A stretch of DNA of 64,000 bases, taken from positions 1,607 through 65,606 of the forward strand of contig CAWCWZ010000063.1 in assembly GCA_963799395.1 (NCBI GenBank), given 5' to 3'. Origin of the DNA: an uncultured Actinomycetes bacterium (GTDB lineage Bacteria; Actinomycetota; Thermoleophilia; UBA2241). The notes under the pieces were generated by a model. It was not told the DNA's origin. It did no database searches and worked only from the letters and a program-made list of their open reading frames with translations. The translations under genes and the position numbers were made by a program. This document shows positions 4,882 through 24,868 of the stretch, one piece after another (positions within the stretch are counted from its first letter, which is position 1; each line of letters opens with the position of its first letter).

Positions 4882-5725
4882 TCAGGCGGGGTAGGAGCCC
4901 AGCACCTTCAGCCAGGAGAGCTTGCAGCCGAGGCAGGAGAGCGCTTGGGCGATGGGCGGGTCGGAGCTGCGGCCCACCATGTCGATGAAGAAGATGTAGT
5001 CGCCGAGCCCCTGCTTGGAGGGCCGCGATTCGACCTTCGTCAGGTTGACGTAGCGGTAGGCGAACTCGGAGAGGATCATCAGCAGGCTGCCGGGCTGGTC
5101 CTGGGAGATGCCGCAGACGATGCTCGTCTTGAAGGTCTCGTCGGTCTCTTGCGGCGCCTCGTCGCGGCTCACGAAGACGAAGCGGGTGCGGTTCTCCTGG
5201 GCGTCGTCGATGTCGGGGGCGATCACCTCGCACTCGTACATCTCGGCCGCCAGGCGGGTGCCGATGGCCACCCACGGCCGGTCGACGCGGCTCACGCGGC
5301 GCACCGCTTCGGCGGTCGAGTCGGTGGCCTCGTGCTCGACGCCGTCCAGGTGCTCGCGGATGAACTCGCGGCACTGGCCGTAGGCGTGCGGGATGCTGAC
5401 GATCTTGGTGACGCGCTCGAACTCGAGCGGAGCGCCGGGCGATGAGCTGCTGGTGCACCTGCCAGGTGATCTCGCGCACGATGCGCAGCTCGTCGAAGCC
5501 GAAGGCCAGGCTGTCGAGGGTGACGACCACCGAGCCCTCGAGCGAGTTCTCGATGGGCACGATGCCCAGCGGCGCCTCGCCGGCCTGCACCGCCTTGAGC
5601 ACCTCGCGGATCGACGGGTAGGGGAACGGGTGGTAGGCGCCGATCGGCATGTTGGCCAGCAGGGCCTCTTCGCTGAAGGTGCCCTCGGGGCCGAGAAAGG
5701 CGATCGGCTGCGAGCCGGCGCTCAT
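4882..5725 (-). CDS. pheA: prephenate dehydratase (PDT catalytic domain plus ACT domain), reading frame broken by a 1-nt frameshift near 5432..5440
   Basis: The N-terminal PDT domain (MSAGSQPIAFLGPEGTFSEEALL...IVPIENSLEGSV...) lies in the frame of the composite ORF 4853..7579. The C-terminal part (APLEFERVTKIVSIPHAYGQCREF...ESRPS...VLGSYPA) lies in the frame of ORF 4882..5304. The span is 844 nt, which is not a multiple of 3. The start ATGA overlaps the stop of the upstream DUF4446 gene. Confidence 0.8.
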
Positions 5726-21787: not shown

Positions 21788-22131
21788 GCGCCGGGCGCGG
21801 ACTCCCAGACGATGTCGTCGACGTGCACGCCGATCTCGTCCAGGTCGATGCCCGTCATGCTGTGCAGGTACGAGCGCACGGCCCGGCGGATCTGCGGCAC
21901 GAGCTGGGGCAGCTTCGCCGCCGGCGTGATGACGATGTGGAGGTCGAGCACGCGACGCCCTTCGCGCTCATCGAGACGCACCGGCCCGAGGCGTTCGAAG
22001 TGCACGCGCTCGCCCAGCGACTGCAGCGTGCTGCGGTGGAGCTCGGCGAGGCCGGGCAGTTCCTTGATCGCGTCCCAGACGTAGGTCGAGATGACCTCGG
22101 GCGAGTAGCTCTTGTCGGCGTTCTCGGTCAC
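21784..22131 (-). CDS. Asp23/Gls24 family (alkaline shock protein 23-like) protein
   Basis: 115 aa (MTENADKSYSPEVISTYVWDAIKELPGL…GVHVDDIVWE). Its stop overlaps the start of the downstream hypothetical gene in an ATGA arrangement. Confidence 0.75.
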   Translation of the reverse strand: MTENADKSYSPEVISTYVWDAIKELPGLAELHRSTLQSLGERVHFERLGPVRLDEREGRRVLDLHIVITPAAKLPQLVPQIRRAVRSYLHSMTGIDLDEIGVHVDDIVWESAPGA

Positions 22132-22189
22132 GGGCGCCTCGCGGGCTCTCGGGCTGCTGGGCGGGCGTTGGGCTGTTGGGCGCCGGTCG

Positions 22190-22262
22190 TGCCGCCGGCG
22201 CCGTGGTCGGTGCCCCGATTATAGTCCGAGCCCGACGCTCGCGTGAACATGAGCGTCGGGCT
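22190..22262 (-). promoter_or_regulatory. putative asp23 promoter: minus-strand TATAAT hexamer (plus 22218..22223) overlapped by a 13 bp inverted repeat
   Basis: On the minus strand a perfect TATAAT lies about 90 nt upstream of the asp23 start, with a weak -35 (TTCACG) at a 19 nt spacing. The inverted repeat GAGCCCGACGCTC-N10-GAGCGTCGGGCT(T) spans the -35 and spacer region. Confidence 0.3.
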
Positions 22263-22290
22263 TGCCGACGAGCACAGGGGGTCGGCCGCG

Positions 22291-22400
22291 GATGGCGTCG
22301 GGCGAACCGTGCGGGGTGGCCCGCGGGTGGCGCCGGCCAGGCGGGTAGGGTGACTCGCGGGTGGCGCCGGGGAACCGTGTGGGGTGCGCGCTACCTTGGA
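22291..22400. repeat. mirrored X-Y ... Y-X short repeats (X=GAACCGTG[C/T]GGGGTG, Y=CGCGGGTGGCGCCGG)
   Basis: The two motifs occur once in the order X-Y and again about 20 nt later in the order Y-X. They lie immediately 5' of the large palindrome. Confidence 0.8.
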
Positions 22401-22435
22401 CAATTGGCCCAGATCTGGCCAATTGTCCAAGGTAG
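22391..22435. repeat. near-perfect 44-45 bp palindrome CTACCTTGGACAATTGGCC(C)AGATCTGGCCAATTGTCCAAGGTAG
   Basis: The 19 nt arms are exact reverse complements. They contain nested palindromes (CAATTG, TTGGCCAA) around a central AGATCT. The only asymmetry is a single extra C next to the centre. Confidence 0.9.
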
Positions 22436-22537
22436 CCGAACGCACACACGCCCTCGGCCGGGCGACCTCTCGTTCGCCTGCGGTCCCGCCCTGCCGCTAC
22501 GAACCAGCCGCGGCCGCCGAAGGCCACCCCGCCACCG

Positions 22538-22610
22538 ATCGAGCCCCGCCGCCGGTCGAGCCCCGCCGCCGGCCGAGCCTCGCCGCCGGGCGCCCGCCGC
22601 CCCGCTGCGC
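22538..22610. repeat. about 3.5 tandem copies of a 17 bp unit GAGCCCCGCCGCCGG(T/C)C
   Basis: The units are directly readable as consecutive degenerate copies. The block is intergenic. Confidence 0.75.
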
Positions 22611-22618
22611 CTCGCCGA

Positions 22619-22647
22619 TTGCCCGGCCGCAGGCCATGGCCTATACT
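22619..22647 (+). promoter_or_regulatory. sigma-70-like promoter for the amidohydrolase gene (-35 TTGCCC, 17 nt spacer, -10 TATACT)
   Basis: Hexamers and spacing read directly. The spacer contains the palindrome GGCCATGGCC. The predicted leader (about 120 nt) contains a CGGGCC-N7-GGCCCG hairpin and the CACATGAC repeats. Confidence 0.4.
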
Positions 22648-22721
22648 CACGGCTCGGTGGTCCGGGGCGCGCGCCACGGGCCATTTTTCGGCCCGTCGTC
22701 AGACCCCTTCTCGCGGACGGC

Positions 22722-22792
22722 CTCACATGACCGCTCTTCACATGACCACGCTCACCTCTCACATGACGGCTCTCTCATGACCTCGCTCTATC
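22722..22792 (+). repeat. four imperfect direct repeats of CACATGAC, the last overlapping the amidohydrolase start codon; together they encode a 17-codon uORF
   Basis: CACATGACCGCTCTT / CACATGACCACGCTCACCTCT / CACATGACGGCTCTCT / CATGACCTCGCTCTAT. The first three ATGs share a frame that translates to MTALHMTTLTSHMTALS, then a TGA that overlaps the main ATG (ATGA). Confidence 0.7.
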
Positions 22793-24211
22793 GCGCCGAA
22801 TGGCTGCTGCCCATCACCGCCCCGCCGGTCCGGAACGGGGCGGTCGCCGTCGACGGCGAGCGCATCGTCGCGGTGGGCACGCTCAACGACGTGCGCGCCG
22901 CCTGCCCCGACGCGGTCGAGGTCGACTTTGGCCGGGCGGTCGTGATGCCGGGGTTCGTCAACGCCCACAGCCACCTCGAGTACACCAGCTTCCGCGGCAT
23001 GTTCGACGACCAGCAGTTCGGCGACTGGATCATCAGCCTGATCGACGTCAAGGCCTCGCTCACCCCCGACGAGTACCTGTGGAGCGCCCGTCTCGGGGCG
23101 CTCGAGGCGCTCGCCTCGGGGGTCACGACCATCGCCGACACCACCTACACCGGCGAGACCCTCACCGCCTCGGCCGAAGCCGGCCTGCGCGGCGTCGCCT
23201 ATCTCGAGGTCTTCGGCGTCGACGACAAGCGTCTCGACGAGACCATCGCCGACCTGCGTCGAGCGCCTCGCGCGGGCCCAGGCGCTGGCGAACCCGCGCC
23301 TCGAGATCGGCATCGCTCCGCACGCGCCCTACACCGTCTCCAGCCGCCTGTTCCAGACGCTCGCCGCCTTCGCCCGCGAGCGTCACCTGAAGGTCGCGAG
23401 CCACGTGGCCGAAAGCAAAGAAGAGGTCGCCTACATCCGCTCCGGCTCGGGCAAGTTCGCCCACGACTACCGCGAGAAGATGGGCTGGGAGCGCATGCTC
23501 ATCCAGCCCTACGGGGTGAGCCCCATCAAGTATCTGCAGCAGTGGGGCCTCTTCGACGAGAACTTCCTGGCCGTGCACTGCGTGCACGCGAGCATCGACG
23601 ACATCCGCATCCTCAAGGCCAAGCGGGTGGCCGTGGCCCACTGCCCCAAGAGCAACGCCAAGACCGGCTGCGGCATCGCCCCGCTGCCCGACCTTCTGCG
23701 CCAGGGCGTGCGGGTCGGCTTCGGCACCGACAGCCCGGCGGCGAGCAACATCATGGACATGTTCGACGAGATGCGCACCGCGCTGTTCCTGCACCGCGGC
23801 GTGGAGCGCGACGTCAGCGTGCTGAACGCCGCCCAGTGCATCCGCATCGCCACGCTCGGCGGGGCCGAAGCCCTGGGCCTCGACGACCGCGTCGGCTCGC
23901 TCGACCCCGGCAAGCAGGCCGATCTGATCGCCGTCGACGTCTCGAGCTCGCACTTCGTGCCGATCGACGACCCCTGCTCGGCTCTCGTCTACGGCGCCAA
24001 TCAGGACGACGTGCTGTTCACCTGCGTCGCCGGCGAGCCGCTCTACCAGGAGGGCGGGTTCCCGCGGCTCGACGCCCACGCCATCCGCGCCGAGAGCCGC
24101 AAGGTGCGCGCCAAGCTGCAGGCCCGGGTGGGCGAGGGCAGGGTCCGGGTCGGCGCCGCCGAATCCGGCTGGTGGCACAACCCGGCCGCGACAGACAAGA
24201 GGGAGAGCTGA
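22777..24211 (+). CDS. amidohydrolase-superfamily deaminase (chlorohydrolase / MtaD-like), interrupted by a +1 frameshift near 23255..23262
   Basis: The N-terminal half (MTSLYRAEWLLPI...MPGFVNAHSHLEY...) is in the frame of ORF 22384..24918. The remainder (VERLRAGQALANPRLEIGIAPHAPYTVSS...HVAESKEEVAYIRS...HCVH...GTDSPAASN...) is in the frame of ORF 23405..24211. The total length is not a multiple of 3. Confidence 0.75.
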
Positions 24212-24868
24212 TGCTCCTCAACCGCCAACGCGTGAAGTTCTGGCAGAAGATCGTCTTCGGCTTCATGGCGGTCCTCATGGCCGGCTTCCTGATCTTCGGC
24301 TACTCGGGCGTCATCCAGGGCTGCAGCGGGAATACCGTGAACTCGGGCAACAGCTCGCTCGACAGCCAGGTCAAGGCCGCCCTCGCCAGCCTCAAGAAGA
24401 ACCCCAACGACCCCACGGCGCTGCTCGGGGCGGCACAGGGCTACCAGTCGGCCGGGGTACGTCCAGAACGGCCTGCCCTCACCCAAACAGTCGAACGACC
24501 TGACCAGGGCACTCGGCTACTACGATCGCTACCTGAAGCTGCCCGACTCGGTACTTGGGGCGGCGGCGGTGGGCCTGCGCGTCAAGGCTCTCCTGGCGGA
24601 GGCCCCGATCTACAACGAGCTCATCGACTACAAAAGCGCGGTCGCCACCTACAAGAAGATACTCAAGCTGGAGCCGGGCTACTCCGACGCCTACCTGGGG
24701 ATCGCCTCCAGCGACGTCGCGGCCGGCAATACCGCCGACGCGATCGCCGCCTTCACGAAGTTCCTCAAGCTCGCCCCGCACTCGCAGTACGCGACCGAGG
24801 TCAAGAACGAGCTCGCCCAGCTTCAGGCGGCGGCGTCGGCGTCGCCCTCGCCCAGCGCCACGCCCTGA
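24211..24868 (+). CDS. membrane-anchored TPR-repeat protein, interrupted by a +1 frameshift in a GGGG run near 24454..24457
   Basis: The ATG overlaps the amidohydrolase stop (TGATG). The N-terminus with a TM helix (MLLNRQRVKFWQKIVFGFMAVLMAGFLIFGY...) is in one frame. The TPR-like remainder (YVQNGLPSPKQSNDLTRALGYYDRYLKL...AYLGIASSDVAAGNTADAIAAFTKFLKLAP) is in ORF 24569..24868. Confidence 0.55.

Follow-up and report, generated by a model that had tools for sequence, protein, structure and literature searches.

A tandemly repeated start-codon segment at the start of an amidohydrolase gene in one clade of uncultured Thermoleophilia

Results

The amidohydrolase locus

The window, which is the whole 64,000-nucleotide stretch of DNA that was analysed, has a G+C content of 70.7% and belongs to the genome of an uncultured member of the Thermoleophilia (Actinomycetota). 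An amidohydrolase gene is separated from a divergently oriented Asp23-family gene by an intergenic region of 645 nt, and the promoter and repeats described here lie at the 3' end of this region (Table 1). Two other tandem arrays are found in the same intergenic region, a 17-nt repeat present in 3.7 copies and a 34-nt repeat present in 2.9 copies, and perfect short tandem duplications were also observed elsewhere in the window.

The amidohydrolase gene was assigned from Pfam and NCBIfam matches; no NCBIfam model reached its cut-off, and the family profiles aligned from residue 4 of the short form of the protein. Third-position G+C periodicity begins only at ∼22760 and is in the frame of the ATG at 22777. 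The reading frame is interrupted in the window by an extra G, which was placed at 23256 by comparison with five relatives and three sister strains, and the stop codon of the gene overlaps the ATG of the next gene within the sequence TGATG (24209-24213).

Table 1. Features in and around the leader of the amidohydrolase gene, numbered from the first letter of the window.
Feature	Position	Strand	Remarks
Asp23-family gene, divergent	22131 to 21784	−	5' neighbour of the intergenic region
−35 hexamer TTGCCC	22619-22624	+	Promoter scan
−10 hexamer TATACT	22642-22647	+	Exact in 78/78 orthologous loci
Conserved 5'-proximal RNA hairpin (GGTGGTCCGGGGC...GCCACGGGCCATT)	22656-22685	+	Near-invariant in the window, L001-L009 and L067
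CGGGCC/GGCCCG hairpin of the sequence-only reading	22677-22695 (arms 22677-22682 and 22690-22695)	+	Shares an arm with the conserved hairpin
Window-private single-base insertion	22704		C4 versus C3 (outgroups also C3); in leader
Shine-Dalgarno (SD)-like GGACGG	22715-22720	+	6 nt before ATG1; putative SD
Four imperfect tandem copies of the start-codon segment (TCAC ATGACC..GCTC)	22722-22787	+	Repeat comparison
17-codon upstream ORF as read in the window, MTALHMTTLTSHMTALS	22727-22780	+	TGA overlaps the main ATG
Window-private single-base insertion	22737		TT versus T; ATG1 frame joined to ATG2/ATG3
TT in the window, single T in L079, L080 and L081	22737-22738	+	Insertion of the preceding row
GACGG in unit 3	22765-22769	+	7 nt before the main ATG; identical in L079, L080 and L081
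Amidohydrolase gene (Amidohydro_1; MTA/SAH-deaminase-like or TRZ/ATZ-like)	22777-24211	+	Pfam and NCBIfam matches
Window-private single-base insertion	23256		Extra G; amidohydrolase frameshift
Window-private single-base insertion	24454		G4 versus G3; TPR gene frameshift

The promoter is conserved across orthologous loci

A sequence-only reading of this DNA had proposed a TTGCCC-17-TATACT promoter upstream of the amidohydrolase gene, and these elements are present as described. The two hexamers match the sigma-70-type consensus at 9/12 positions, their spacing fits the 16-18 nt requirement, and the pair is one of two promoter-like matches within 1 kb, where 0.0 were expected from shuffled sequence. 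When prokaryotic genomes were scanned at one per species, 77 orthologous loci (L001-L077) with 64-94% protein identity were obtained, originating from bogs, soils and sediments and nearly all labelled as uncultured Thermoleophilia, Actinomycetes or Actinomycetota. Promoters were compared at 78 loci, a set which includes two sister strains that were found later. The −10 hexamer was invariant throughout this set, and a −35 box beginning with TTG was located 17-18 nt from it in 77 of the 78, most often as TTGCCA (46 loci), with TTGCGC (15), TTGCCT (7) and TTGCCC (3) as variants. The 3' end of the spacer (GCTCcCC) was also kept across the loci, the leaders having otherwise diverged. The predicted amidohydrolase promoter was judged to be real because its hexamers are conserved across orthologous loci despite this divergence. 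Transcription would be expected to start at approximately 22653-22655, and the proposal that the leader is carried on the transcript is supported, its 5' end being placed from the position of the promoter.

A conserved hairpin near the predicted 5' end

The 30 nt that follow the −10 hexamer (GGTGGTCCGGGGCGCGCGCCACGGGCCATT) were retained almost unchanged in the ten closest species (L001-L009 and L067), and a conserved hairpin begins a few bases from the predicted 5' end of the transcript. RNAalifold predicted 11 pairs for this hairpin, with G-U, G-C and A-U exchanges; 96% of alignment cells were paired, compared with 35-53% when the pairing partner was slid along the sequence. Compensatory changes were present at two pairs, and the covariation score was reached by 3 of 500 shuffles. 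A run of T residues follows the hairpin at 22684-22688 (TTTTT in the window), of four to six T in most close relatives and absent from L007, L008 and the more distant group; terminator scans of the hairpin did not call a terminator. Rfam searches returned nothing relevant at E ≤ 1 between 21500 and 23500 and no match at the gathering score at 15 orthologous loci.

Some stem-loops at the extreme 5' end stabilise bacterial mRNAs, as in the ompA and aprE leaders, and the hairpin at 22656-22685 resembles these in beginning near the predicted transcript end. It differs from them in being followed, in the closest relatives, by a U-rich run, which gives it the appearance of an attenuator that nonetheless fails a simple terminator scan. 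The hairpin could be either a stabilising 5' stem-loop or an attenuator, both functions being putative. The promoter, kept across the orthologs, and this 5' hairpin, kept in the closest relatives, form the part of the leader that looks functional.

The sequence-only reading had described a different hairpin, CGGGCC/GGCCCG, which shares an arm with the conserved one. This structure can form and is present in the minimum-energy fold of the window; however, its 3' arm reads GGTCTG, GGTCG, AGTCC, CGTTCG and the like in relatives, so that on these alignments it is a clade-specific hairpin and is not conserved outside the clade, whereas the overlapping hairpin at 22656-22685 is. Folding energy gave no additional weight to a structured leader. 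Leaders folded no better than shuffled sequences (z = −0.2 for the window and −0.7 for L009), and the hairpins of 78 leaders barely exceeded those of background 48-nt windows (−18.3 versus −16.1 kcal mol−1), so that the stability of the conserved hairpin is ordinary for DNA of this G+C content; the argument from energy was dropped for these reasons. RNAalifold found no consensus structure for 29 leaders that included distant orthologs, and a subset of 12 leader sequences gave a weak hairpin with little covariation.

Four copies of the start-codon segment precede and include the true start

The direct repeats that had been noted at this position are present as four units of CACATGAC type. The 16-nt units, which resemble CTCACATGACCGCTCT, start at 22722, 22737, 22758 and 22772, giving spacings of 15, 21 and 14 nt in the window, and are 81-100% identical to the reference copy. 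Exact matches to the 8-mer CACATGAC number three in the 64-kb window and all fall inside 44 nt, against ∼1.1 expected for the whole window on both strands, and no further copies of the motif were found elsewhere in the window when one mismatch was allowed. Owing to its variable period, the array escaped Tandem Repeats Finder even when the lowest score threshold was set. Unit 2 (TCACATGACCACGCTC) matches the ancestral segment, as represented by L009 (TCACATGACCACGATC), at 15 of 16 positions; being a single base away from the ancestral sequence, it identifies the array as an amplification of approximately positions −4 to +12 of the gene itself.

Copy number was assessed in the 75 of 77 relatives for which the gene start lay on the fetched DNA. 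The start-codon segment (cgtCAC-ATG-ACC-ACC-ATC) was single in all 75, each with protein identity ≤94%, and neither a second CATGAC at the gene start nor an upstream ORF (uORF) was found in any of them. The start context GTCAC-ATG-ACC and the sequence CGGACGG, which directly precedes the one start codon of these species, were near-invariant in L001-L009 and L067, and by comparison with these ten closest species the extra bases of the window (∼50 nt) sit exactly at the start segment. GGACGG is thus probably the ancestral ribosome-binding site of the gene, as judged from its position and conservation. A second SD-like sequence, the GACGG in unit 3, could act as a weak SD from which ribosomes initiate directly at the true start.

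The conserved SD together with two copies of CACATGAC was also sought as a pattern in 241 million metagenome records. Only one contig was returned, which was unrelated and of lower G+C content; upstream of an ABC-transporter gene it carried GGCGTCACATGAC within each of four tandem repeats of 20 nt.

The array is shared by sister strains

Exact-protein searches with the Asp23-like protein and a 331-amino-acid membrane protein of the window matched no contig, which places the assembly of the window outside the collection searched. A protein search returned clusters with ≤94% identity, and sister strains were found among the cluster members. Proteins P0143 and P0134, which are 99.6% and 98.5% identical to that of the window, are intact at 477 amino acids and start with MTSLYRAEW, where other close relatives (82-94% identity) mostly have MTTIYRAEW. 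Three sister contigs were recovered, L079 being part of an ENA assembly and L080 and L081 of one NCBI assembly each, with proteins 98.5-99.6% identical to that of the window, and the four-unit array was present in all three. In each of these the first unit is one T shorter than in the window (GCTC-TCACATG), so that the spacings are 14, 21 and 14 nt and the extra DNA relative to single-copy relatives amounts to 49 nt. The array has not collapsed across ∼3-5% DNA divergence among the strains. On the sequences compared, it is confined to one species-level clade and would have arisen after the split from the 94%-identical lineage.

The occurrence of the array in three further independent assemblies indicates that it is real and is no assembly artefact. 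This also bears on the suggestion that the repeats were misassembled, or that the protein starts at ATG1 with an HMT(A/T)L extension masked by an indel error. The window does contain indel errors, and the third spacing, 14 nt, is one base short of being in frame. However, with the 49-nt insert of the sisters (3n+1) every upstream ATG is out of frame with the gene; starts are called at the fourth ATG in all three sister assemblies and give 477 amino acids, the length of the closest homologues, and the NCBIfam alignment begins at residue 4 of the short form. An artefact or a masked N-terminal extension is accordingly refuted by the sister contigs as far as sequence can do so, and is considered extremely improbable.

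Upstream reading frames and the extra T

In the window, the ATGs at 22727, 22742 and 22763 share one frame, which is closed by a TGA at 22778-22780 overlapping the main ATG at 22777-22779. The 17-residue peptide described from this sequence can therefore be read in the window; in the three sister strains it is split into ORFs of 5 and 12 codons. ATG1 of the sisters opens the 5-codon ORF MTALT, whose TGA overlaps ATG2, and ATG2 opens the 12-codon ORF, translated as MTTLTSHMTALS in L079, MITFTSHMTALS in L080 and MITFTSHMTALP in L081 (consensus M(T/I)T(L/F)TSHMTAL(S/P) followed by the stop). The TGA of this second ORF overlaps the true ATG in all three. The ATGA overlap between the last upstream ORF and the amidohydrolase start, which had been pointed out for the window, is thus common to 4/4 strains, and in none of the four does an upstream frame enter the gene out of frame, each closing exactly on an ATGA.

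The difference between the two arrangements is the extra T in the window, which is one of four single-base insertions private to it (Table 1). Two of these break conserved genes that are intact in the sister strains, the amidohydrolase gene in L079, L080 and L081 and the TPR gene in L080 and L081. For this reason the extra T is most likely a sequencing or assembly error, with the 17-codon uORF not the true arrangement; alternatively, it could be a genuine strain polymorphism. For the Microflora Danica MAGs, Nanopore reads were the sole input to assembly, and the sequences were polished once to reduce indels (PMC12313526).

The extra T also raises the question of phase variation, in which slippage in unit number or in the T run would switch translation of the deaminase. 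A tandem repeat with several ATGs at a translation start would suit such a locus, and a T run within the array is indeed 1 nt longer in the window than in the sisters. In contrast, the units are long (14-21 nt) and imperfect, at 81-94% identity, which makes them poor substrates for slippage, and exactly four are present in 4/4 strains. The 1-nt difference leaves the end of the last upstream ORF unchanged, and it accompanies three other private insertions, of which two are clearly harmful, a pattern indicative of sequencing error. Haemophilus influenzae lic1, with CAAT repeats at its 5' end, and Neisseria opa, with CTCTT repeats, are contingency loci that have several start codons; their repeats consist of many perfect 4-5-nt units whose number varies. 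The present array is similar in that a 5' tandem repeat sets which ATG is in frame, and dissimilar in the length, imperfection and constant number of its units. A phase-variable contingency locus is consequently regarded as very unlikely.

Variation within the repeat block

No difference separated the window, L079 and L080 over the segment from 22619 to 22700, which comprises the promoter and the hairpin. Within the 53 nt of the repeat block, four polymorphic sites (22746, 22751, 22756 and 22775) were present among four sequences, a number that gives an estimate of constraint little power. Site 22746 is the last base of the CACATGAC core of unit 2, which becomes CACATGAT in L080 and L081, and site 22775 falls in the CTC flanking unit 4, three bases before the main ATG, which reads CCC in L081. 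When read in the frame of the second upstream ORF, three of the changes are nonsynonymous (T to I, L to F and S to P) and one is synonymous. G or C occupies the third position in 12 of the 18 codons of the uORF, counting the stop (67%), compared with ∼95% in neighbouring genes. The peptide MTALHMTTLTSHMTALS contains at most two consecutive Thr residues, and its composition mirrors the repeated M-T-x-L start. No terminator or antiterminator between the uORF and the gene was found in scans of 22000-23000 and of L080, and the uORF abuts the start of the gene.

These data bear directly on the suggestion that the mini-ORFs form a regulatory leader, in which pausing or occupancy of ribosomes on one or more Thr/His/Met-rich peptides would sense an amino acid, tRNA charging or a metal and so set reinitiation at the deaminase ATG. 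The SD-like GGACGG lies 6 nt before ATG1, the ATGA overlaps tie the ORFs to the gene in 4/4 strains, and Thr accounts for 5 of 17 residues in the reading from the window. The mini-ORFs are, however, absent from 75 relatives that keep the promoter, the hairpin and the gene, an outcome that the sequence-only reading had itself named as refuting its proposal. The layout of the ORFs differs between the window and the three sister strains, the residues vary within the clade with no run of a single codon, codon usage is atypical, and there is no terminator/antiterminator or other alternative structure between the uORF and the gene, nor an Rfam match. Known sensing uORFs include the attenuation leader peptides encoded by trpL, hisL, thrL and pheL. 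Like these, the present arrangement has a short ORF downstream of an SD-like sequence and within a metabolic gene's leader; unlike them, it is limited to one species-level clade, has neither a run of regulatory codons nor a downstream terminator/antiterminator, and shows drift in its peptide between strains. The sensing leader peptide proposed earlier is on this evidence improbable.

The other function that had been proposed for the repeats, that of binding sites for a regulator, was considered in the form of iterated sites for a DNA- or RNA-binding factor recognizing the ancestral near-palindrome GTCACATGAC, where more sites would give stronger occlusion of the ribosome-binding region. The start motif is conserved in the closest relatives and forms a perfect palindrome in some loci (GTCATATGAC in L004 and L067, GTCACGTGAC in L033 and L039), and the unrelated metagenome contig carries its four repeats before an ABC-transporter gene. 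The spacings of 14, 21 and 14 nt are nevertheless irregular and not helically phased, the cores vary in both units 2 and 4 as described above, the 64-kb window holds no other copies with one mismatch allowed, and no candidate regulator gene was identified. Iterated operator sites are, like the sensing leader, judged improbable. A palindromic operator at the start site was also considered and rejected as a general feature of the orthologs, since the start context is not general and is quite different in many of them.

Discussion

A probably tolerated duplication of the start segment

The arrangement of the locus is probably best explained by a duplication of the start segment that was tolerated in one lineage, with the uORFs as by-products and not as a sensing leader peptide. 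According to this explanation, a segment of 14-21 nt spanning the start codon (about −4 to +12, TCAC-ATG-ACC-..-GCTC) would have been tandemly amplified to four imperfect copies in one lineage, and 49 nt would thereby have come to separate the ancestral GGACGG from the true start. Replication slippage or unequal recombination within a repeat-prone intergenic region is the probable cause. The mRNA, transcribed from the sigma-70-type promoter, would open with the conserved hairpin and continue into the array.

Much of the apparently designed layout would follow from the composition of the unit. Since every unit carries ATGA, units spaced by 3n+2 place the stop of an upstream frame on the following ATG. 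With 3n the protein would be lengthened, and 3n+1 is the only spacing from which ribosomes would enter the gene in the wrong frame. The coupled appearance of the ORFs would thus be largely inherent in the repeat, although selection against harmful variants may have helped. With the spacings of the sister strains, translation from ATG1 would yield MTALT and stop on ATG2, and the 12-codon ORF would stop on the real ATG; in the window, as assembled, the extra T would fuse the two mini-ORFs into a single ORF of 17 codons.

Expression of the enzyme was probably kept by termination-reinitiation at the ATGA overlaps, ribosomes loading at the old SD. Direct initiation at the fourth ATG by way of the GACGG in unit 3 may have provided a second or a joint route. 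We infer both the mechanism of duplication and which of the ATGs are used. The net effect on expression would be neutral or mildly dampening, neutrality being suggested by non-conservation alone. The closure of frames on ATGA in all strains and the recreated GACGG would be expected under selection for continued expression; a selected relay fits these observations too.

That the start cassettes are adaptive in this lineage is improbable. They would then act either as a relay of ATGA-linked mini-ORFs that passes ribosomes on from the ancestral ribosome-binding site to the true start and so tunes or gates translation of the deaminase, or as a multiplied operator for a factor recognizing GTCACATGAC. 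Were either the relay or the operator true, the locus would represent a new regulatory leader born from the duplicated initiation region of the gene itself.

Comparison with coupled genes

In bacteria, strict translational coupling is a common consequence of ATGA overlaps (Huber et al., 2019; PMC6728339). The putative upstream ORFs here resemble systems of termination-reinitiation coupling (PMC6728339) in that they end in a TGA overlapping the next ATG, and the stop codon of the amidohydrolase gene itself overlaps the ATG that follows in the manner of overlap-coupled pairs. The likeness does not extend to the partners, which here would be ORFs of 5 and 12 codons (17 in the window) derived from a duplicated start and not conserved protein-coding genes.

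The locus is a lineage-specific case of known phenomena, namely tandem duplication and small ORFs with overlapping stops and starts. As a regulatory discovery it carries small weight, the uORF being unconserved and its 17-codon form probably a sequencing error. Read as a tolerated duplication, it offers a natural example of how duplication of a start codon creates uORFs that are stop/start-coupled to the gene because the unit contains ATGA, and so illustrates a plausible way in which uORFs can originate and be tolerated. It also advises caution with long-read metagenome assemblies, in which readings that depend on frame can turn on single-base indels. Single-base indels of a like kind were observed in related long-read soil MAGs, for example those containing L009 and L004.

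Conservation of the deaminase promoter

The promoter of the amidohydrolase (deaminase) gene was compared across 78 orthologous loci (L001–L077 from relatives, L079 and L080 from sister strains; window 22600–22650). The −10 hexamer TATACT was invariant, and the −35 hexamer was TTGCCA or TTGCGC at a spacing of 17–18 nt. Conservation also covered the last bases of the spacer (GCTCcCC) and the nucleotide directly following the −10, and a further signal may reside in the sequence flanking the hexamers. Conservation of this kind is unusual for Thermoleophilia-type genomes sharing only 64–94% protein identity.

Structure of the divergent intergenic region

Upstream of this promoter lie the features listed first in the table. 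The −10 of the promoter facing the Asp23-family gene (GATTATAG on the plus strand) was unchanged in all nine aligned sequences. The distance from this −10 to the deaminase −35 is ∼370–400 nt in the window, as opposed to only 60–100 nt in most relatives.

Features of the deaminase locus (window coordinates unless a contig is named)
Feature	Position	Strand	Description
Asp23-family gene promoter	22218–22247	minus	TTCACG-18-TATAAT, divergent
34-nt tandem repeat	22286–22386		2.9 copies
Palindrome	22390–22436		47 nt, 20-nt arms 100% complementary, between the two divergent promoters
Palindrome counterpart, sister strain	L079 2629–2668		
Palindrome counterpart, relative	L001 3665–3707		
17-nt tandem repeat	22527–22594		CCCCGCCGCCGGTCGAG, 3.7 copies, directly upstream of the deaminase promoter
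Gene junction	24209–24213		TGATG, overlap of the amidohydrolase stop with the start codon of the TPR-repeat gene that follows

The palindrome, which is single-copy within the window, falls inside an insert of ∼370 nt that is missing from the relatives L002–L009. Its centre in L079 reads ATGATCAT as against CAGATCTG and is palindromic still, and in L001 the G-to-A and C-to-T changes are symmetric, affecting both arms. The element may be an operator, may form a cruciform or hairpin, or may be what is left of a small mobile element. The tandem arrays carry different indels in the window, L079 and L080, and the intergenic region upstream of the deaminase gene is therefore repeat-prone.

Reading frame and translation start

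Comparison with the three sister-strain contigs (L079–L081) identified four single-base insertions private to the window, at 22704, 22737, 23256 and 24454, which are probably long-read assembly errors. The insertion at 23256 shifts the frame of the amidohydrolase gene, which is intact in all three contigs, and that at 24454 shifts the frame of the downstream TPR-repeat gene, intact in L080 and L081. Caution is due for every reading of the window that depends on frame. The junction between these two genes is preceded by GGGAGAG and the gene calls of L080 have the same 1-nt overlap; the pair probably forms one translationally coupled operon.

In five orthologs (L012, L015, L016, L055 and L069), the stretch from the final in-frame stop (TGA) to the conserved ITIYR N-terminus, ∼40 nt before the match start, contains neither ATG nor GTG nor TTG in frame. 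The codons conserved there are GAG GCG GTC ATC ACG, and the ortholog L027 differs in having GTG in place of GCG. The sequence suggests a non-canonical start codon in these five orthologs, perhaps the ATC after GAGG.

Unrelated and oddly labelled contigs

Four 20-nt tandem repeats (GGTGGTCGGCGTCACATGAC) were found at 4960–5040 of L078 (Ga0180215_1002289), an unrelated metagenome contig of lower GC, upstream of an ABC-transporter ATPase gene. These repeats and the ancestral deaminase start region have GGCGTCACATGAC in common, which may be chance (∼0.2 hits expected, a rough estimate) or a recurring motif. Two contigs labelled 'Methanosarcinaceae archaeon' (L075) and 'Deltaproteobacteria bacterium' (L034) both carry the same Thermoleophilia-type locus, and are probably mis-binned in the MAGs so labelled.
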